Source: an uncultured Candidatus Saccharibacteria bacterium (GTDB lineage Bacteria > Patescibacteriota > Minisyncoccia > UBA6257 > 2-01-FULL-56-20). From it: a stretch of DNA of 64,000 bases. A program made the position numbers and the translations under genes. The DNA lies in assembly GCA_964530925.1 (NCBI GenBank), contig CAZHBZ010000002.1:3621-67620 (forward strand), in the 5' to 3' direction. This document shows positions 2,104 to 59,785 of the stretch, one piece after another (positions within the stretch are counted from its first letter, which is position 1; every line of letters starts with the position of its first letter). Under the pieces are notes generated by a model. The model saw nothing but the letters and a program-made list of their open reading frames with translations. It was not told the DNA's origin and did not search any database.

Positions 2104-3093
2104 CTACTTCCTTCTCAAAACCTTTTTTACTGCCGCCTTAATATGCTTCGCGGTCATCCCATACTTTTCCAAAAGTTCGGAAGATGAGCCGGATTCCGCA
2201 AAGACATTTTGCAATCCAACAAATTCCATAGGAACCGGATTATGTTTTGCCAAAAGCTCCGCGATTGCTCCTCCGAGTCCTCCGGATATCTGGTGCTCCT
2301 CGACGGCAACGATTGCCCCGTATTTTTTCGCTAATTCCAAAATTTTCTTTTCATCCAGAGGCTTAACGGTGTGGGAATTCAGAACCACAGTTCCAATTTT
2401 TTCTTTTTCGAGCTCCTTCGCGGCGAGAATCGCCTCGTAAAGCAAAGCTCCGCAACCAATTATTGCCACTTGCGGACGCTTGGATTGCCAAAGGACAATG
2501 GCTTTACCGGGAACGAACGGAGTTTCTTCCGTGGTAAAAACCGGAGTCTTCTCCCGCTGGAACCTCAAATATACCGGACCCCAAATCTTTGCCGCGACCA
2601 AAGTCGCCTTGCGGGCCTCAATGGAATCGCAAGGGACGATAACTTTCATGTTGGCCATCACCCTCATGGTCGCGATATCTTCCACCGCTTGGTGGGTCGC
2701 TCCGTCCGGACCCACGGAAATACCCGCGTGATGTCCGGCAATTTTTACATTGGAATCGTTATAAGAAATAGTGGTGCGAATCTGTTCCCAATTTCTGCCC
2801 GGAGAAAAAGTGGCGTAAGAAGAGATGAAAGGAATCTTGCCGGAAGTTCCAAGCCCCGCGGCGATGGTCGCCAGGTTCTGCTCCGCCACGCCAACCTGGA
2901 AAAACCTCTCCGGAAATTTTTTGGCAAAAGCTTCGGCCCGGGTAGATTCCGTAAGGTCGGCCGAAAGCGCGACCACGTTCTTGTTTTCCTCTCCGGCCAA
3001 AACCAACCCGTCGCCATAGCCGTCTCTAGTCGGCTTTTGGAGAACGTCTTTATCGAATATCTTCCCGCTTAATTTTGCCTCCGGATTTAACAT
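2104..3093 (-). CDS. transketolase, C-terminal (pyrimidine-binding) subunit
   Basis: 329 aa with conserved transketolase Pyr/C-terminal domain blocks (FQVGVAEQNL..., GPDGATHQAVEDIA...); lies next to the N-terminal subunit gene. Confidence 0.9.
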   Translation of the reverse strand: MLNPEAKLSGKIFDKDVLQKPTRDGYGDGLVLAGEENKNVVALSADLTESTRAEAFAKKFPERFFQVGVAEQNLATIAAGLGTSGKIPFISSYATFSPGRNWEQIRTTISYNDSNVKIAGHHAGISVGPDGATHQAVEDIATMRVMANMKVIVPCDSIEARKATLVAAKIWGPVYLRFQREKTPVFTTEETPFVPGKAIVLWQSKRPQVAIIGCGALLYEAILAAKELEKEKIGTVVLNSHTVKPLDEKKILELAKKYGAIVAVEEHQISGGLGGAIAELLAKHNPVPMEFVGLQNVFAESGSSSELLEKYGMTAKHIKAAVKKVLRRK

Positions 3094-3097
3094 TTAA

Positions 3098-3589
3098 TTA
3101 TATTTTCTTAGCTTTATACCCTAGAATCAACCTTCGGATTATCAGAATAATTCCCGCTCCAAAGAGAACGAGGCCTATCCATTCTCCGCCAAAAATGTAA
3201 AACAGCATATAAGTCGGATATGGCAGTACGCCAAGGGACGGAGTAAAATATAACGCTGCTCCTAAAAAGAGCAGCAAAACCCCGATTACCAGAGAAGCAT
3301 TACCGGTCTTCACGGTAAGAGAATTGTCGACTGACTCACCAATCCCCTGTTCGGTTTCAAGTTTTTTGAATTTACGTTTCAAGAAAAATCCCGAAACCAC
3401 CAAAAGGACCGAAAGACCCATAAAACTGCCCAAAATCGTATAATAAGCAGCCGGACCACCCGTTTTTGCTCCGAAACCGAGATCCATGGCCCCGGTAAAA
3501 AGAGCGATCACCGGCGCTAGAACCAAGGATATTACAAGCAAACCAAAACCGAGCCACATTAGAAAATTCGCTATTTTTATGTTTTTCAT
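3098..3589 (-). CDS. hypothetical polytopic membrane protein
   Basis: 163 aa, four or five hydrophobic helices, no recognisable motif. Confidence 0.6.
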   Translation of the reverse strand: MKNIKIANFLMWLGFGLLVISLVLAPVIALFTGAMDLGFGAKTGGPAAYYTILGSFMGLSVLLVVSGFFLKRKFKKLETEQGIGESVDNSLTVKTGNASLVIGVLLLFLGAALYFTPSLGVLPYPTYMLFYIFGGEWIGLVLFGAGIILIIRRLILGYKAKKI

Positions 3590-3602
3590 TTTATTTATTA
3601 TT

Positions 3603-3645
3603 CTCTACCTGCTACTCACTACTTACTACCCACTACCTAACTGCG
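3603..3645 (+). repeat. CTAC-repeat element (CTCTACCTGCTACTCACTACTTACTACCCACTACCTAACT) between the tktN stop and the membrane-protein gene start
   Basis: G-free tract on plus (GTAG-rich in minus mRNA sense); same submotifs as the other family members. Confidence 0.5.
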
Positions 3646-3646
3646 C

Positions 3647-4507
3647 CTACTGGTGTTCGCTTTTAATTTTTCCGGCCAGCGTCCGAAGCTCTTTTAGCGC
3701 AATCTTCGCCTCCTCCGGCTTTGGCGGCTTGCCGTGCCAAGTGTAGTCGTTTTCCATAAAATCCACACCCCTCCCCGGAATCGTGTGCGCGATTATCATT
3801 GTGGGTTTTTCATAAATTGCTTTCGCCTCCGCGCAGGCGGAAATTATCTGATGAAAATCGTGTCCGTTAATTTCCAAAACATGCCAGTTAAAAGCCTCGT
3901 ATTTTTTCCGCAGGGGCTCCAGGGGCATAACCGATTCCGTCACGCCATCAATTTGAATGTTATTCCGATCCAAAATGGCCGTGACATTTGAAAGCCTATT
4001 TTTACCGGCGAACATAATGGCCTCCCAAGTATTCCCCTCCTGGTGCTCCCCATCAGACATCAAACAATAGGTGCGATACTTTGCCTTGTCTAATTTTGCC
4101 GCGAGCGCGAACCCAATAGCCTGGGAAAGGCCAGAGCCAAGCGGTCCCGAAGTTGTCTCTACTCCCGGCAACGATCCGCGATGCGGGTGTCCTTGAAGCC
4201 TTGTTCCTAGCTGTCTTAAGGTTTTAAGTTCCGCCGGCGGGAAATATCCGGCCCGGGCAAGCGTTGCGTAAAACACGGGACAAATATGGCCGTTTGAAAG
4301 CACCACCCGGTCCCGCCCATCCCAATTCGGTTTTTTAGGCTCATGATTCAAAATGTGAAAATAAAGGGCGGTAAAAACATCCGCCATTCCCAAAGGTCCA
4401 GCGGAATGCCCGGAGCCGGCAGTCACAAGCATCTTTATAATATCCTCGCGTATCTGCGTGGCTTTCTCTTCCAAAAATTTCAATTTATCGTCGTGAAGCG
4501 CTTCCAT
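3647..4507 (-). CDS. transketolase, N-terminal (TPP-binding) subunit
   Basis: 286 aa with GSGHSAGPLGMAD... and GHPH... TPP-binding motifs of the transketolase N-domain; split-gene arrangement with the C-subunit gene. Confidence 0.9.
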   Translation of the reverse strand: MEALHDDKLKFLEEKATQIREDIIKMLVTAGSGHSAGPLGMADVFTALYFHILNHEPKKPNWDGRDRVVLSNGHICPVFYATLARAGYFPPAELKTLRQLGTRLQGHPHRGSLPGVETTSGPLGSGLSQAIGFALAAKLDKAKYRTYCLMSDGEHQEGNTWEAIMFAGKNRLSNVTAILDRNNIQIDGVTESVMPLEPLRKKYEAFNWHVLEINGHDFHQIISACAEAKAIYEKPTMIIAHTIPGRGVDFMENDYTWHGKPPKPEEAKIALKELRTLAGKIKSEHQ

Positions 4508-12816: not shown

Positions 12817-14466
<1,650 letters not shown>

Positions 14467-15992: not shown

Positions 15993-16097
15993 GGTAATTA
16001 GTTAGTAGTTGGTCGTAGGTAGCAAGTGGTTAATATGGGAATGGAATCCACGGTTCTGGACGCATCACGACTAACGACAGACGATCTACGACTTACT
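15993..16097 (-). repeat. inverted pair of CTAC/CGAC/TAAC repeat elements (GT-rich arm 15993-16031, CA-rich arm 16062-16097) between the SPW gene stop and the trxB start
   Basis: GTCGTAGGTAG...GTTAGTAG on one arm and CACGACTAACGACAGACGATCTACGAC on the other; could form a long interrupted RNA stem; member of the window-wide repeat family. Confidence 0.6.
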
Positions 16098-16265
16098 TTC
16101 TTTATCCTCCTTCTCCCCAAACAGCTCCCAAGCAAAAGCCACAGCCAAGACCAATCCCGCGATAACCGAGCTCCACTTAGCGAGAGATATCCCGTCAAAG
16201 CCCAAAAGCCAAGGAGAAACGATGAGCCAAACCCCAAGACCAAAAGCTATCCAAGAAGAGTTCAT
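16086..16265 (-). CDS. SPW-repeat family small membrane protein
   Basis: 59 aa from the internal ATG (MNSSWIAFGLGVWLIVSPWLLGF...); two TM helices with the SPW motif. Confidence 0.6.
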   Translation of the reverse strand: MNSSWIAFGLGVWLIVSPWLLGFDGISLAKWSSVIAGLVLAVAFAWELFGEKEDKESKS

Positions 16266-50936: not shown

Positions 50937-51536
50937 TTATTTTCCTTTTTCCGGAGCCTTTAGCGTCGCCAAAAGATCGCTCACCCGGGAATCATCCGGC
51001 CAATATTTCAAAATAGTCCCTCCAACTTCTCTTGTATTCTCGTCATCTCCGACCGCGCTATAAAGCGTCAGAAGACCGTAAAGGACCGGCGGCAATTTCG
51101 GTCCGAGTTCACGCGCTCGTTTGTAATAGTCTATGGCGGCATCATAATCATCCTGCTTCATAAACCGAGTGAGAGACATTGTGTGAAGAGTTGCCATAGC
51201 AATATAATGCCGCGTGTCCGGATATATTTTCGGTTCGATATAATCTATAAGTTCCCGCGCCATCGATTCGGATATGTCTTGCTGCGAGTTGACCACGGAA
51301 AGGATATTGCTTGTAAGATATTTCGCCGACTCCTCTCCTCCGACCGGAGAATAGAAATCAAAAACTTTATCGAAATTCGCTTTGAAATCAGCGATGGTGC
51401 GCACGCTGTTGGCGCTTCGGGCCGAGTCTATATAGGTTTGCGATTTTAAGACCGGCAAGACCGAACCGAATACAAACAAAAAAACCACGGCGAGGATACA
51501 GAGCGAAATAACCGCCAATTTAAAACTATTGTTCAT
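50937..51536 (-). CDS. hypothetical membrane-anchored TPR-like protein
   Basis: N-terminal TM segment followed by helical repeats (…AIDYYKRARELGP…); no precise family. Confidence 0.5.
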   Translation of the reverse strand: MNNSFKLAVISLCILAVVFLFVFGSVLPVLKSQTYIDSARSANSVRTIADFKANFDKVFDFYSPVGGEESAKYLTSNILSVVNSQQDISESMARELIDYIEPKIYPDTRHYIAMATLHTMSLTRFMKQDDYDAAIDYYKRARELGPKLPPVLYGLLTLYSAVGDDENTREVGGTILKYWPDDSRVSDLLATLKAPEKGK

Positions 51537-52896
51537 TAGTCCTGTTTTCTTTTGCCCGCGACGAATTCAGAAGATAGTAGGCAAAACCAAAGAAGAGAAA
51601 AATATTCAAGTAAGTCGGCAATATGTCGAAAAGCACCATGCCCTGCACCAGGTAAGCTATGGGCAACGCGAAGACTATCGCCTTGGCGGCTGGCGAGAGC
51701 TTCGCTAGTCTTGAAGCGTTCTCGTGGCTCGAATGTTTCTCCCGCCCCTTTCTTAAAACCTCCACGAAGAAAACCAAAAAAATAGAGAAGTACGCGAGAG
51801 TTCCCAAAAGCCCTATCTCCGCCAAATAATCAAAGAATATATTATGAGCCCTATCGAACCACGCGCCGAACGCCGCCGGCGGCTTGAAATATTCGGTATT
51901 AAAATTGCGGTCAAAAACATGTAAGAAATTTTCCGGACCGGCTCCCAAAAGCGGCCTCTCTTTAAATCCGTCCCAAGCCATCTTCCAGATAGTGCGGCGG
52001 TCGCTGAAAGTTTGAGCGCTGAAAGAAATATCAAAAACCCTGGCGAACGGGAGCTTCTTTATGAGCGGATTATCTTTTAAGACGACCATCGCCGACACAA
52101 ACAAAACCACAAACGCCGCAAGCCCAATAAGCCACTTCCTCCACTCTTTTTTGGAGAACGCCAAAAATCCCAGGAAAAATACCGAACTCGCGATTAAAGC
52201 TAGGAAAGCTCCGCGGGTCGCCGCCAAAAATAGAAATACAATAAATATCAAAACGGAAGCGGCTATCGGCAGGCCCTTAACCGAACGAATCTGTCCGCGA
52301 TATTTAGTAAAAAGGAGATAAAGAGCGAAAAAGAGCATAAAAATCATGTAAGTCGCGAAATAGGCCGGGTTTCCGATAGAACCTTGGAATCGGAAATTCT
52401 CCGCGCTAAACGCCGGGCCGATCACGTTCTCCACTCCCCAGCCCGCCAAAAGACCGTAACCAATAGAAAGGAAGGCGGCGGAAAAAGAGCACCAGAATAT
52501 TCTTATCCAGTTCTTCTCTTCGTCAAAAAGCGCCGCTAAAAGCAGAAAAAATCCATAAAGATGGAGTATCTGTAAGCCACCCTCTCCCCGCTCAAAATTA
52601 GACCAAAAAGAATTGGCTGGATCGACGCCAAAAGCTCCAGAGAGAAGAAAAAAGAATGTAAACGCTGAAATCGCGATGCCGAGCGGAGACCTTATAACTT
52701 TGCGTAGCTTGTCTAGATAGACATCGCCGTCGCTCTCTTTTATGAGCCCGATAAGGAAAAAGATAAGCGCGAAGTCAACGGAACTCCGAAACCACGCGTA
52801 TTTCCCAACGATAAAAGGGAAAAGCGTGGATGTAGTAACCAAGGTTATCGCGAAAACCGCGGCGTAAAGAAAAAATTTTGATATTTTGAATGACAT
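51526..52896 (-). CDS. O-antigen ligase/polymerase family membrane protein (Wzy_C)
   Basis: 10-12 TM helices with a periplasmic loop (…QGSIGNPAY…ATRGAF…); 456 aa; closes the Wzx/Wzy-type locus. Confidence 0.75.
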   Translation of the reverse strand: MSFKISKFFLYAAVFAITLVTTSTLFPFIVGKYAWFRSSVDFALIFFLIGLIKESDGDVYLDKLRKVIRSPLGIAISAFTFFFLLSGAFGVDPANSFWSNFERGEGGLQILHLYGFFLLLAALFDEEKNWIRIFWCSFSAAFLSIGYGLLAGWGVENVIGPAFSAENFRFQGSIGNPAYFATYMIFMLFFALYLLFTKYRGQIRSVKGLPIAASVLIFIVFLFLAATRGAFLALIASSVFFLGFLAFSKKEWRKWLIGLAAFVVLFVSAMVVLKDNPLIKKLPFARVFDISFSAQTFSDRRTIWKMAWDGFKERPLLGAGPENFLHVFDRNFNTEYFKPPAAFGAWFDRAHNIFFDYLAEIGLLGTLAYFSIFLVFFVEVLRKGREKHSSHENASRLAKLSPAAKAIVFALPIAYLVQGMVLFDILPTYLNIFLFFGFAYYLLNSSRAKENRTNEQ

Positions 52897-52937
52897 AGGC
52901 GTGAGTAGTTTGTCGTAAGTCGTTGGTAGTTAGACTT
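52897..52937 (-). repeat. GT-rich (plus-sense) arm of an inverted repeat pair flanking the four-helix-bundle gene; its reverse complement forms the leader of the ligase gene
   Basis: GAGTAGTTTGTCGTAAGTCGTTGGTAGTTAGAC, about 75% match to the reverse complement of the arm at 53312-53344. Confidence 0.55.
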
Positions 52938-52945
52938 CTCCTGCT

Positions 52946-53311
52946 TTATTCTAGACTTTTAGCCAATTTGTTGAGCATCCTCATAACGTCATCAAGCAGC
53001 ACTAGAACTTTAGCATAATCTTCTTTGCGCCCAAAACCAAGATTCTTGGCAATCTCAAGCTGCGTTTCCAATTCCGCGCCAGAACCAAACGCTATTAACA
53101 CAAAATGCCTGAAATCTTTTTTTGTTCCTCACCTGCTTCCTTCGGCTATATTTGAAGGGATCGAGACAGCCGATCTTTTAATCTGGGATACAAGAGCGAA
53201 TCTTTCGTCGGACGGGAATACCTCGGTTAAGGAATACACCAAACCCGCAAGTTCGACGGATTTTTGCCAAACATGAAGTTCTCTATATGAACCAAGTTTC
53301 ATTGCCCCCAT
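52946..53311 (-). pseudogene. four-helix-bundle protein (23S rRNA intervening-sequence protein family) interrupted by an in-frame TGA at 53129-53131
   Basis: MGAMKLGSYRELHVWQKSVELAGLVYSLTEVFPSDERFALVSQIKRSAVSIPSNIAEGSR-TGA-GTKKDFRHFVLIAFGSGAELETQLEIAKNLGF...LNKLAKSLE; both halves match the family consensus in one frame. Confidence 0.75.
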
Positions 53312-53344
53312 AACTACCTACGACCCACGACTAACGACCAACTA
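53312..53344 (-). repeat. CA-rich (plus-sense) arm of the inverted repeat pair; overlaps the rny stop codon
   Basis: AACTACCTACGACCCACGACTAACGACCAACTACC containing the family core CACGACTAAC. Confidence 0.55.
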
Positions 53345-54862
53345 CCTGGCAAACTCCACCGCCCTCATTTCCCTGATAACATTCACCTTAATTTCGCCCG
53401 GATACTTAAGCTCGCTCTGTATCCTGTTTGCGATTTCCTTGGCCATCTCGAGCGCCCGGAAGTCGTCTATTTTTTCGGGAATTACGAACACGCGCAATTC
53501 GCGGCCCGCGGAAATAGCATAGGCATTTTTAACCCCTGGAAATTCGGAGGCGATCTTTTCCAAATCCGCCAGACGTTTAATGTAATTTTCCACCGTTCCC
53601 CTCCTCGCTCCGGGGCGCGCGGCGGACAACACGTCCACGGCAGTTATAACAAATGACTCCGGAGACGCGTACGGATAATCTTCGTGATGGCTCCTCATCC
53701 CGTTTATCACATCTTCGGAAATACCGTACTTCTTGAGTATCTTCATTCCAAGATCCACGTGCGTTCCTTCTACCTCGTGGTCTATGGCTTTTCCGATGTC
53801 GTGCAAGAGCGCGGCCTTCTTCGCCACCGCCACATTCAACCCCAACTCCGCCGCCATCATGCCGGCAAGATAAGTCATCTCGATCGAGTGGTTCAAAACA
53901 TTCTGACCAAAACTGGTGCGGAAATGTAAGCGCCCCAAGAGCGAAAGAATTTCTTTTGGCAGATCGTAAACACCGACCTCCATTGCCGCCGCCTCGCCAA
54001 TCTCGCCCACGCGCTTGTTGAGTTCTTCTTTGGCTTCCTCAACCTTTTCCTCTATCTTCGCGGGTTGGATCCGGCCGTCTTTAATGAGTTGTTCCAAGGC
54101 AAGCCTCGCGACTTCCCTGCGGAAAGGGTCGAAGGACGAAATGACTATGGTGTCCGGAGTTTCATCCATCACGAATTCCACGCCGGTCGCTCTTTCCAGA
54201 GCGCGGATGTTGCGGCCTTCGCGGCCGATTATTTTTCCTTTAATTTCCTCGTCAGCCAGATGGAAAACAGTGGTGGTAAGTTCGGAAACGTGCGAACGGG
54301 CGTAGCGCTGCATCGCGGTCGTGATTATCTCCACAGATTTTTTCTCGAGCTCATCCCGGAGATTCTGTTCGAGCTTCTGCATAGTTTTCGCAAGATCCTC
54401 CCGATTCTGTTCTTTTACCGCGGAATACAAAGCTTCCTTTGCCTGCTCGGGCGAAAGACCGCTCACTTTTTCTAGCTCCACCTGCGCCTTGGCGCGGACT
54501 TCGTCTACCTCTTTGTGGCGCGCTTCGAGAGCCTCTCGCTCAGCGCGAAGTTTAGCGGAATCCTGGTCCAACGCGGTTAATTTCTTTTCCAAAGACTCCT
54601 CGCGTTCATGGATGCGGGATTCGAGGGCCAATATTTCTTTTTTCCGATCGCGTTCCTCCTTTTGCGCTTCTTCCAAAATGTTCGAGGCTTTCTCTTTCGC
54701 GCCAAGCAAAATTTCCTTGGCCTCGCTCTCGGCTTTTTTATTCTTCTCTTCTATTTGCTGCTCGAGCGAACCTAACTGTTTAGTCGCCCAAACCTGTCGC
54801 ACAAAGTATCCTGCCGCCAGACCCAAAACAAGGCCCCCTAAGGGAATCAGTATTGAAGACAT
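53342..54862 (-). CDS. rny: ribonuclease Y
   Basis: N-terminal TM anchor, coiled-coil, KH domain (…IGREGRNIR…) and HD domain (…HDIGK…); 506 aa. Confidence 0.92.
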   Translation of the reverse strand: MSSILIPLGGLVLGLAAGYFVRQVWATKQLGSLEQQIEEKNKKAESEAKEILLGAKEKASNILEEAQKEERDRKKEILALESRIHEREESLEKKLTALDQDSAKLRAEREALEARHKEVDEVRAKAQVELEKVSGLSPEQAKEALYSAVKEQNREDLAKTMQKLEQNLRDELEKKSVEIITTAMQRYARSHVSELTTTVFHLADEEIKGKIIGREGRNIRALERATGVEFVMDETPDTIVISSFDPFRREVARLALEQLIKDGRIQPAKIEEKVEEAKEELNKRVGEIGEAAAMEVGVYDLPKEILSLLGRLHFRTSFGQNVLNHSIEMTYLAGMMAAELGLNVAVAKKAALLHDIGKAIDHEVEGTHVDLGMKILKKYGISEDVINGMRSHHEDYPYASPESFVITAVDVLSAARPGARRGTVENYIKRLADLEKIASEFPGVKNAYAISAGRELRVFVIPEKIDDFRALEMAKEIANRIQSELKYPGEIKVNVIREMRAVEFAR

Positions 54863-57281: not shown

Positions 57282-57393
57282 TGGACAGAAATTAACCTAA
57301 TTGCTCTAATTACCCTAATTGACCGGGGCGGGCTCGCCTCATCTTAGAATAATTAGTTGTAATTAAAATAATTAGAAATAATTTACTTAAGAT

Positions 57394-57690: not shown

Positions 57691-57724
57691 CGCTACCTAC
57701 TACCTACTACTAACTACCCACTGC
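57691..57724 (+). repeat. CTAC-repeat leader element (CGCTACCTACTACCTACTACTAACTACCCACTGC) upstream of the SBP gene
   Basis: Member of the CTAC/TAAC repeat family; ends 9 nt before the ATG. Confidence 0.5.
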
Positions 57725-57733
57725 ATTTCAAAG

Positions 57734-59383
57734 ATGGTTTGGCTAAAAAAAATATTCGCATCCTTTTCCAGAAAAGAACGTCTTAGTTTCGTTTTTGCTT
57801 CAACTCTGGCGGCGGCCGCGGGGGCGCTGCTTCTTTGGCTCATATTCATAAACGTAACCACAACCGCGCCCGCCCGAGGCGGCGACTATGCCGAAGGCTT
57901 CTTGGGCCAGCCGGCATACGCGAATCCCCTTCTTGCGGAGACCCCCGTAGATAAAGCCTTAGTACGGCTAGTATTCGCGAACCTTCCAGACCTATCTGAC
58001 AAAATCGAAAGCGACAAGACCGGGAAAAGCTATAAGGTCCGGCTCAAGGAAAATCTCTTCTGGTCTAACGGACAGAAGCTCACAAGCGACGACGTTATCT
58101 TCACCCTCCAAAAGCTCCAAGATCCGCAAACCGCGAGTCCATATTTTTCGAACTGGCAAGGCGTTGCCGCCGCCCGAGTGAGCGAACTGGAAGTTCAGTT
58201 CACCCTCGCCGCTCCTTACGCGTTCTTTTCGCAAAGCCTTCAAAACTTCTATGTCGTCCCCAAGCACCTTTTTGCCGACACGCCAGCGTCCAATTGGAAA
58301 TTATCCGATTACAACCTGAAGCCGGTCGGTTCCGGTCCTTTTTCTTTTTACTCCTACGAAAAACGGGATGATGGATTTATAAATGCTTATCATCTAAAAG
58401 CGAACGAAAAGTATGCCGGCGGGGCCCCTTATATAGAAAACTTTGATTTGCGTTTTTTCACCAAACCAGAAGATATTGTTAAGGCGTTTAACTCCGGACA
58501 AATTGACGCCATCTCCGATTTGGATCCGGAAACTCTAAAAAGCATTCGCCGCACCTACAATCTCGCGGAGTTTCTTTTGCCGAACTATTACGCGGTTTTC
58601 TGGAATCAAAGCCAAAACGAGGCACTGACAGACTCATCCGTGCGGCAAGCCCTCTCGCTTTCGATAAACAGAAGCGAAATTATCCGCGACGCCCTTTACG
58701 GTTATGGCCGCGAAAGTCTTGGTCCGATTCCAAAAGATATCCCGGGGCTCGATATATCTTATTCCGCTCCCCAAAACGATCCGGATGGAGCGAACAACCT
58801 CTTGGAGTCTGCCGGATGGAAAATGGGAGACGGAGGCCTCCGCGTGAAAGAAACCAAAACCGGATTCTTAGAATTGAAATTCCGATTGACCGTCCCAAAT
58901 ATCCCGTTTTTGGTTTCCACCGCAAAAACTCTAGCCTCGGAATGGTCCAAGGTTGGAGCGATAGCCGAACTCAAGATTATGCCCCCGGATGAAATAATCT
59001 CCGGTCAAATAAAAAACAGGGATTACGAAGCTGTTCTTTTCGGGAACCTCTTGGGCTCGAATGGCGATCTGTACGCATTCTGGCACTCTTCGGAAAAATA
59101 CTATCCCGGATTGAACCTGTCCCTCTATGGGAACAAGCAGACTGATAAGCTTTTGGAATCCATACGTCAAAACCCGGATAAAACAAGCCGAGAAGAGCAA
59201 TTTCAAGATCTCGCGGATAAGATTACCGATGCCCTTCCGGCAACCTTCCTTTACTCTCCATCTTATCTCTTTGTATCAAGCCGCGATTTGGGCGGCGTCG
59301 AAGGAGGGTTCCTGGGCGAGAACGCGGATCGCCTTCGAAAAGCTAGGGACTGGTTCGTGAAAGTCGCGCGGGTATTCAAATAA
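57734..59383 (+). CDS. ABC transporter substrate-binding protein, family 5 (oligopeptide/nickel type)
   Basis: 549 aa, N-terminal TM/signal anchor, SBP_bac_5 architecture. Confidence 0.8.
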   Translation: MVWLKKIFASFSRKERLSFVFASTLAAAAGALLLWLIFINVTTTAPARGGDYAEGFLGQPAYANPLLAETPVDKALVRLVFANLPDLSDKIESDKTGKSYKVRLKENLFWSNGQKLTSDDVIFTLQKLQDPQTASPYFSNWQGVAAARVSELEVQFTLAAPYAFFSQSLQNFYVVPKHLFADTPASNWKLSDYNLKPVGSGPFSFYSYEKRDDGFINAYHLKANEKYAGGAPYIENFDLRFFTKPEDIVKAFNSGQIDAISDLDPETLKSIRRTYNLAEFLLPNYYAVFWNQSQNEALTDSSVRQALSLSINRSEIIRDALYGYGRESLGPIPKDIPGLDISYSAPQNDPDGANNLLESAGWKMGDGGLRVKETKTGFLELKFRLTVPNIPFLVSTAKTLASEWSKVGAIAELKIMPPDEIISGQIKNRDYEAVLFGNLLGSNGDLYAFWHSSEKYYPGLNLSLYGNKQTDKLLESIRQNPDKTSREEQFQDLADKITDALPATFLYSPSYLFVSSRDLGGVEGGFLGENADRLRKARDWFVKVARVFK

Positions 59384-59679: not shown

Positions 59680-59745
59680 CACTAAGTAAAATTAGTAAAA
59701 AAAAATATAAACAAGTCGAAAGTTGGTCATTTGTATTGAGGCTTA

Positions 59746-59785
59746 AAACTACTCACTACTCACGACTAACCACCAACTAATTCAA
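59746..59785 (+). repeat. CTAC-repeat leader element (AAACTACTCACTACTCACGACTAACCACCAACTAATTCAA) abutting the rnj ATG
   Basis: Contains the family core CACGACTAAC; near-identical in composition to the trxB leader (CTACCTACGACCAACTACTAACTAATTAC). Confidence 0.55.

Follow-up and report, generated by a model that had tools for sequence, protein, structure and literature searches.

In an uncultured Candidatus Saccharibacteria bacterium, a cassette of about 445 nucleotides (nt) sits between rny, the gene for RNase Y, and a gene for an O-antigen-ligase-type protein (Wzy_C), and it is gained, lost or replaced as one unit among close relatives. The cassette lies in a stretch of 64,000 nt from contig CAZHBZ010000002.1 (hereafter the window) and consists of an open reading frame (ORF) for a four-helix-bundle (4HB) protein, split by a single in-frame TGA and enclosed by two complementary arrays of tandem heptamers. 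We consider it probable that this is a decaying, gain- and loss-prone cassette of the type known from the intervening sequences (IVS) of ribosomal RNA (rRNA) genes, here lodged in an operon and with a stem that would be cut by RNase III. The initial annotation had offered three readings of the locus: a decaying mobile IVS-like cassette, programmed readthrough of the TGA, and an RNase III-processed intercistronic element. The first is well supported, better than the other two, by a discrete arm-ORF-arm unit, by empty sites, by a divergent allele in a close relative and by a TGA in place of an arginine codon, although "mobile" holds only in the sense of gain, loss and replacement. The third is plausible by analogy with rRNA IVS, and the second fares poorly for reasons given below.

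The evidence for exchange as a unit comes from the same junction in relatives, where homologous loci are given L numbers. The three best 4HB matches among more than 6700 homologues (L001, L002 and L003) share both the position between rny and Wzy_C and the layout of the arms, and further alleles of the junction (L164, L166, L171 and others) were located by searching with the rny protein. In L164, whose RNase Y is 98% identical in amino acids (aa), and in L171, whose rny is 87.7% identical to that of the window in nucleotides, the two genes simply join as TAA-T-ATG; L171 shares a 90%-identity protein cluster with P0121, a match 100% identical to the RNase Y of the window. A third empty site, in L166 (rny 82% identical in aa), reads TAA-9 nt-ATG. 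Aligned to these sites, the window has a surplus of 445 nt that corresponds exactly to arm, ORF and arm, with a boundary uncertain by 1-2 nt, and the ends of the inserted segment (52897-53341) coincide with the outer ends of the arms, as terminal inverted repeats would. The cassette fills the whole gap between its neighbours, with the rny stop codon on one side and the Wzy_C ATG on the other. In empty alleles that ATG follows the rny stop at a distance of 1-9 nt (L164:4519-4525, TAATATG; L166:4019-4033), and the TAATATG arrangement suggests translational coupling of rny and Wzy_C, which the cassette would interrupt.

Replacement is seen in L003, the closest relative by its flanks (rny 91% and the 5' part of Wzy_C 97% identical in nt), whose 4HB allele is nevertheless just 65% identical to that of the window. 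The breakpoints between the two are sharp, with a drop in identity from 98-100% to 43-75% over a few tens of bases at either end, and about 30 nt of the 5' end of Wzy_C were carried along in the replacement. The reverse holds for L001, with more distant flanks yet a closer 4HB protein (86% identical in aa), and the tree of the cassette is in conflict with the tree of its flanks. Homologous recombination through the flanks would suffice for such a replacement. Two further alleles were met at the junction. In L165 (rny 95% identical in aa), rny is followed by a 124-aa 4HB gene of another subfamily, the GANYREA type (L165:3300-3915); its repeats are of a TTAGAAA/CTAAT type, and their order appears reversed, with the CTA type by the ATG and the TAG type after the stop, on a contig that ends before the next gene. 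In L167 (rny 85% identical), an unrelated ORF of 175 aa with no Pfam match on record occupies the place (L167:3935-4480), so that the junction evidently takes other inserts too. With empty, occupied, replaced and nonsense alleles, the rny-Wzy_C junction is a hot spot.

Every element that the initial annotation had observed in the cassette is present and on the minus strand (Table 1). The joined ORF matches the 4HB profile PF05635 over its entire length (E 5e-36; 123.5 bits against a cut-off of 33.8; model positions 1-106 of 106), the halves on either side of the TGA match it separately (6.8e-19 and 2.9e-11), and the score against TIGR02436 is 118.2 bits, for a cut-off of 24. The claims that an IVS-family gene lies between rny and the O-antigen ligase gene, and that both halves of its protein share one frame, are borne out by these matches, by the identity of the neighbours and by the single TGA. 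All invariant columns of the family are kept, namely R46, S50, N54, E57, G58 and S77-Q84 (the R...S...N..EG core SIPSNIAEG and the GSGAELETQ stretch), and the closest solved structure by sequence match is that of XCC0516 (2GSC; E 1e-26). As for the start, the homologue alignment makes ATG 53302 likelier than the in-frame ATG upstream at 53311, which falls within the arm. The uninterrupted ORF of about 115-125 aa that family members have is absent from the window, the TGA standing at codon 61, and no second 4HB copy occurs there. A search of 52000-54000 against Rfam at permissive thresholds gave no match.

Table 1. Features of the cassette, its neighbours and related repeats. Coordinates are positions in the 64,000-nt window; the cassette and its neighbours are all on the minus strand.
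Feature	Position	Strand	Remarks
rny (RNase Y, 506 aa)	53342..54862	-	ORF; Pfam RNase_Y_N/KH/HD matched on orthologues
rny stop TAG	53342-53344	-	opening TAG unit of the 5' heptamer array, in the stem base (which includes AGGTAG)
5' arm	53311..53345	-	five heptamers, GTAGTTG GTCGTTA GTCGTGG GTCGTAG GTAGTTA; pairing reaches 53347
4HB ORF (PF05635/TIGR02436, S23p/Avd-like)	52946..53311	-	stop TAA 52946-52948
In-frame TGA	53129-53131 (codon 61)	-	at the second Arg of the conserved AEGSRRGTKKDF
3' arm	52897..52934	-	(TCT)AACTACC AACGACT TACGACA AACTACT CACGCCT, complementary A/C-rich array
Cassette	52897..53341	-	445 nt (arm + ORF + arm; boundary uncertain by 1-2 nt), missing in empty sites L164, L171 and L166
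Wzy_C (O-antigen-ligase-type) gene	51526..52896	-	ATG 52894-52896 immediately after the 3' arm
ORF-less hairpin	15993..16101	-	GTCGT/GTAGT and ACGAC/ACTAC heptamers, loop of about 35 nt, -25.5 kcal/mol, z -2.1
Solo heptamer arrays, GTAGT/ACTAC type	3598-3652, 57693-57722, 59741-59777		intergenic spacers, without pairing partner

Each arm is an array of five tandem heptamers, which makes the pair more than a generic inverted repeat. The 5' array is G/U-rich on the strand of the messenger RNA (mRNA) and begins at the G that precedes the TAG of rny. An inverted-repeat search returned the pair as 53312-53347 and 52897-52934 with 82-85% complementarity, and the predicted duplex has 32-35 pairs and a stability of -41.4 to -42.7 kcal/mol (z -4.2 against shuffles), in agreement with the initial annotation, which had described imperfect inverted repeats able to pair. 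Only 2 of 1500 equally spaced pairs of window segments fold as well. The minimum-free-energy fold of the whole 471-nt segment also pairs the arms, although that fold is in itself unexceptional (z -1.55). The stems of the orthologues L001-L003 have 27-46 pairs (-31 to -63 kcal/mol; z -2.9 to -8.5), with the outermost pair at most 6 nt from the rny stop and 0-10 nt from the Wzy_C ATG. The arms change in sequence yet remain complementary: units of GTCGT (5' arm) and ACGAC (3' arm) number 3 and 2 in the window, 5 and 4 in L001, and none in either arm of L002 and L003, so the former are present only where the 3' arm has the latter. A quadruplex was considered as another way to read the arrays and rejected, as the arms do not have four GGG runs.

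The same architecture recurs well beyond this junction. We compared 160 further homologue loci from genome and metagenome collections (L004-L163; 45-64% identical), mostly from phyla of the candidate phyla radiation (CPR) with a few from Bacteroidota. Nearly all have TAG-containing heptamers upstream of the gene on the coding strand and a complementary CTA-containing array downstream, and the four variable positions of the heptamer differ from locus to locus. Chains of at least three units were counted upstream (TAG) in 60 of 81 cassettes and downstream (CTA) in 46 of 81, against less than 1% of control windows. The two arrays of a cassette belong together: the arm duplex averages -40.1 kcal/mol within a locus and -29.7 kcal/mol when arms are combined across loci, and 31 of 49 cassettes have two arrays of one sequence type, where 7.2 would be expected. 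Proteins of cassettes with a shared sequence type are slightly more alike than others (60.5% vs 56.2%; none of 1000 permutations as high), a difference that host phylogeny confounds. In 126 of 139 cases the next gene has the same direction as the cassette, and in 138 of 146 the previous gene does; the median gaps are 38 and 43 nt, which means that the arms occupy the spacers. CPR members of this branch of the family are normally arranged in this way, as a gene between co-directional neighbours with locus-specific TAG arrays on its 5' side and CTA arrays on its 3' side. The initial annotation had regarded the mRNA context as unusual; that premise does not hold, since the roughly 160 homologous cassettes all lie outside rRNA genes and about 90% of them share the direction of both neighbours. 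The flanks of the loci contain 37 further arrays, 23 of which match the sequence type of the local cassette (4.7 expected), and many of them are convergent pairs about 70 nt apart, that is, hairpins without an ORF. Two features of the unit itself may be added here: a period of 7 puts TAG in all three reading frames on entry to the cassette from either side, and the window and L001 partly swap the TAG core for TCG/CGA.

The in-frame TGA takes the place of the second Arg of AEGSRRGTKKDF. Of 23 homologues in an alignment, at least 90% have Arg here, and all are uninterrupted. The orthologous codons are AGA in L001, CGG in L002 and AGG in L003, and those of the more than 6700 homologues that are among the matches listed are likewise uninterrupted, with a length of about 120 aa. 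Compared with L001, the nearest 4HB gene, the ratio of nonsynonymous to synonymous substitution rates (dN/dS) amounts to 0.035 for the part preceding the TGA and 0.045 for the part that follows, with a dS that is saturated. With a ratio of about 0.04 on both sides, the second half has had no time to decay, so the change would be very recent, or a sequence error. In the wider family, 8 of 165 members have a single in-frame stop (6 TAA and 2 TGA) at scattered positions, a count that stands without a background rate from neighbouring genes; besides the window these are L021, L066, L071, L075, L100, L109 and L147 (six TAA, one TGA), whose ORFs are otherwise well conserved. They look like ordinary pseudogenisation. 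Judged from these alignments, the TGA is an ordinary, very recent nonsense substitution of an Arg codon (or a sequence error), and the window copy as sequenced is a fresh pseudogene.

Two other explanations of the TGA have to be weighed. One is that it is decoded, whether by programmed readthrough, as selenocysteine or under code table 4 or 25, to give a full-length protein. The common frame of the halves and the unrelaxed constraint after the TGA are what this would predict, but the conserved residue is Arg and not Gly, Trp, Cys or selenocysteine, and the orthologues L001-L003 have ordinary Arg codons in its place. Moreover, TGA ends 10 of 59 genes in the window by crude gene calling, so that the standard code 11 applies, the only transfer RNA (tRNA) genes within the window are tRNA-Ser(GGA) and tRNA-Leu(CAG), and the in-frame stops of other members are mostly TAA and scattered. 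Decoding is therefore highly improbable. The initial annotation had been right to treat TGA as a genuine stop in the window and code 25 as unlikely, and its suggestion of programmed readthrough falls with the absence of the TGA from all three orthologues, the use of TGA as a window stop and the scatter of stops in the family. The other explanation concerns the stop codon only and leaves the nature of the cassette untouched: the 4HB gene would be intact, and the TGA a sequencing or assembly error or a minority variant. A single base separates TGA from AGA or CGA, conservation of the ORF is otherwise perfect and dN/dS equal on either side, and the source is a metagenome-assembled contig. However, consensus assemblies seldom carry substitution errors, and with single in-frame stops in seven other members of 165, real nonsense alleles are common in the family. 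We regard an error as unlikely, though far less so than decoding. No second assembly of the strain was found by exact look-ups of rny and P0121, and scans of genomes and metagenomes returned no 4HB gene more than 64% identical.

How the cassette might be tolerated in an operon can be sketched as follows. The gene for RNase Y, the cassette and Wzy_C would be transcribed together, given their common direction and an interval in which neither promoter nor terminator signals were recognised: a scan of 52500-53700 gave no promoter-like sites, and terminator-like sites at chance frequency. In the transcript, the arms would close into a stem of about 32-35 bp, at the base of which the rny stop and the Wzy_C start come together, and RNase III would cut this stem as it does in the 23S IVS of Coxiella and Leptospira. 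Such cleavage would separate the flanking messages and free the 4HB message, and the insertion would be harmless. The arms may double as the terminal inverted repeats of the exchanged unit. No Shine-Dalgarno sequence is visible before Wzy_C, in occupied alleles (window 52894-52900) and empty ones alike.

Several observations weigh against this explanation. RNase III cleavage and co-transcription are inferred by analogy, and a six-frame translation of the 64-kb window gave no signature motif of rnc. The arm duplex is more stable in the sense orientation at 44 loci and in the antisense orientation at 35, and about equally stable overall, so G-U pairs do not mark the sense RNA as the selected form. 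The TGA could, as said, be a sequencing or assembly error. As for mobility, no transposase was found and the 4HB gene is the sole ORF in the cassette, the junction has no target-site duplication (TA(G)...T-ATG vs TAA-T-ATG), and no near-identical cassette was found at a second site among 162 cassettes. Pairs at least 80% identical in that set are L097/L098 (100%), L118/L120 (96%), L061/L082 (86%) and the tandem copies of L126; L061 and L082 have a common downstream gene, and the flanks of L097/L098 and L118/L120 lie outside the comparison. L126, with two 4HB cassettes 2.2 kb apart and 80% identical in nt (L126:433-786 and 3001-3351), is the sole two-copy locus found. "Mobile" may consequently mean just exchange by homologous recombination plus deletion. 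The strong selection on the protein that a dN/dS of 0.04 implies suits a host-beneficial gene as well as a selfish one.

Some of these points also favour a different history, in which the 4HB gene and its stem are a resident, vertically inherited feature, the intercistronic stem tunes rny and Wzy_C, and the alleles arose by several deletions and homologous shuffling within the population only. The closest database homologues are all at the same rny-Wzy_C junction, purifying selection is strong, a transposase, a target-site duplication and a second identical copy were not found, an ORF-less hairpin of the same repeats is 92% conserved between relatives, and the recombination breakpoints reach into the flanking genes. 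Residence accords less well with the patchy presence of the element (the window and L003 are occupied, L164 and L171 empty, and L165 has another subfamily), with the conflict between cassette and flank trees and with indel boundaries exactly at the outer arm ends. In addition, the architecture recurs at hundreds of gene junctions unrelated to this one and, in other bacteria, within rRNA genes, and 8 of 165 copies carry fresh nonsense mutations. We consider a resident feature rather improbable, and a decaying, gain- and loss-prone IVS-type cassette remains our preferred explanation.

Repeats of the same family occur elsewhere in the window. The ORF-less hairpin near 16 kb, which is separate from the cassette but belongs to its repeat family, has as neighbours a small SPW-family gene and a gene for a pyridine-nucleotide-disulphide oxidoreductase, with its A/C arm adjoining the ATG of the latter (15992). 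It is 92% conserved in the relatives L172-L175 (oxidoreductase 88% identical), with arms almost invariant, and this conservation hints at a host function of such hairpins, which is a further point against our preferred explanation. An 11-codon mini-ORF (ATG...TAA) in its loop was considered as the relic of a deleted 4HB gene and rejected, as the relatives have ATA for ATG. Two of the three solo arrays stand directly 5' of gene starts without a Shine-Dalgarno sequence, namely those of an SBP_bac_5 gene (57734) and an RNase J gene (59786), and the one before 57734 is missing in the close relatives L164 and L171. The labelling of the initial annotation needs a correction here: the 549-aa ORF at 57734 encodes the SBP_bac_5 protein, and the chaperonin is ORF 12817-14466. 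Upstream of a small SecG-like gene, at 57296-57385, another short repeat was noted by eye, AACCTAATT GCTCTAATT ACCCTAATT followed by TTAGAATAATTAGTTGTAATTAAAATAATTAGAAATAA, which may be another type of array.

As a single locus this is a modest finding, and the interesting part is the regularity behind it. To our knowledge, rRNA IVS and their S23p ORF have gone without an explanation since 1993. The empty, replaced and nonsense alleles at this junction, together with the same architecture at about 160 unrelated junctions in operons, suggest a general intercistronic cassette, of which the rRNA cases would be one special form. We tentatively extend this to a proposal that seems to us possible rather than probable: 4HB genes of PF05635 and inverted heptamer arrays would form a widespread, unrecognised class of selfish cassettes, which enter the stop/start junctions of operons and occasionally the helices of rRNA, where they were first seen as "intervening sequences". 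Excision of heptamer-stem RNA would make them harmless, ORF-less hairpins of the same type would be left behind or spawned, and an Avd-like pentamer would act on the heptamer arrays for spread or maintenance. If so, the window displays three stages of life, namely a freshly inactivated cassette, an ORF-less hairpin and solo arrays. This would matter for several reasons. The 4HB family is the parent of Avd in diversity-generating retroelements, a general cassette would account for heptamer arrays in Xanthomonas that lack an explanation, and genes called "23S_rRNA_IVP" in cas operons may be insertions and not functional partners. For annotation, the name "23S rRNA-intervening sequence protein" misleads, and single in-frame stops are common in such genes.

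Among known systems, the closest parallel is the 23S IVS. One with an S23p ORF was reportedly described from Leptospira by Ralph and McClelland in 1993, and the ORF is said to have been proposed then as part of a mobile element. In Coxiella burnetii, the S23p ATG follows tandem copies of the heptamer GACAGAT, which vary in number and form the terminal stem, RNase III cuts at the first repeat within that stem (PMC4990558), and the S23p ORF decays while the RNA element is retained (PMC4990558, Warrier et al. 2016). The window cassette resembles the 23S elements in its PF05635 protein, in an ORF held in the loop of a long terminal stem, in its sporadic presence among relatives (occupied in L001-L003; empty in L164, L171 and L166) and in a decay-prone ORF, and it shares with Coxiella the tandem heptamers directly upstream of the ATG (five in the window, 53345-53311). 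In contrast, it lies between protein-coding genes and not in helix 25 or 45 of 23S rRNA, and its heptamer is of the type GTAGT/GTCGT instead of GACAGAT. Cleavage by RNase III is proven for the rRNA elements and inferred for the window cassette, and the pieces of a cut mRNA would have no rRNA tertiary structure to join them. Insertions in both 16S and 23S rRNA genes of CPR bacteria contain 23S_rRNA_IVP ORFs (PMC11270868), and there are also reports of such genes with cas genes on both sides, cmr3 and cmr2 in one case (PMC3936711), which fits insertion at operon junctions.

In Xanthomonas, arrays of the heptamer GGGAATC occur as 70-75 convergent pairs of unknown function (PMC4692102, Rehm et al. 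2015). One four-unit array of this type in X. campestris lies 6 nt past bccP and overlaps the annotated start of XCC0516 (XCC0516/XCC0517; PMC4692102 supplementary file 2). The arrays were read as quadruplex-forming and not connected to the 4HB gene (PMC4692102). XCC0516, the protein with the closest solved structure, assembles four-helix bundles into a homopentamer, and its gene, like that of the window, has a heptamer array in front of it; the unit of that array is another one and rich in G, however, and no downstream partner array is listed for XCC0516. Among published full texts, a coverage that leaves out most subscription journals, no paper was found in which 4HB genes outside rRNA are connected with inverted heptamer arrays or with presence/absence polymorphism.

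The 4HB family is also homologous to Avd of diversity-generating retroelements (PMC10053308). Avd is likewise a four-helix-bundle pentamer and binds nucleic acid and the reverse transcriptase in those elements, but the window protein scores below the cut-offs of the Avd profiles (bAvd PF22296, 25.5 vs 40 bits; DivGenRetAVD, 18.4 vs 80 bits), and its immediate neighbours are rny and Wzy_C, not a reverse transcriptase gene with template and variable repeats. An integron cassette of the attC type was rejected on anatomy, as repeats flank the ORF on both sides and there is no cassette array. A formal likeness exists to repetitive extragenic palindromes with their associated tyrosine transposases (REP/RAYT systems or REPtrons) and to elements like miniature inverted-repeat transposable elements, which also have a gene between inverted short repeats, ORF-less hairpins elsewhere in the genome and a repeat sequence type specific to the genome or locus. 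Unlike the REPtron protein, however, that of the 4HB gene lacks any known catalytic motif and is no Y1 transposase; heptamers in tandem arrays take the place of single palindromes, and no target-site duplication was found at the window junction. Homing endonuclease genes, finally, pass through a life cycle of invasion, fixation, degeneration and loss. The window cassette has no endonuclease, and ordinary recombination could give the same pattern, but the junction resembles a homing site in that empty, intact, nonsense and replaced alleles are found at one and the same place, with short tracts of the flanks co-converted.

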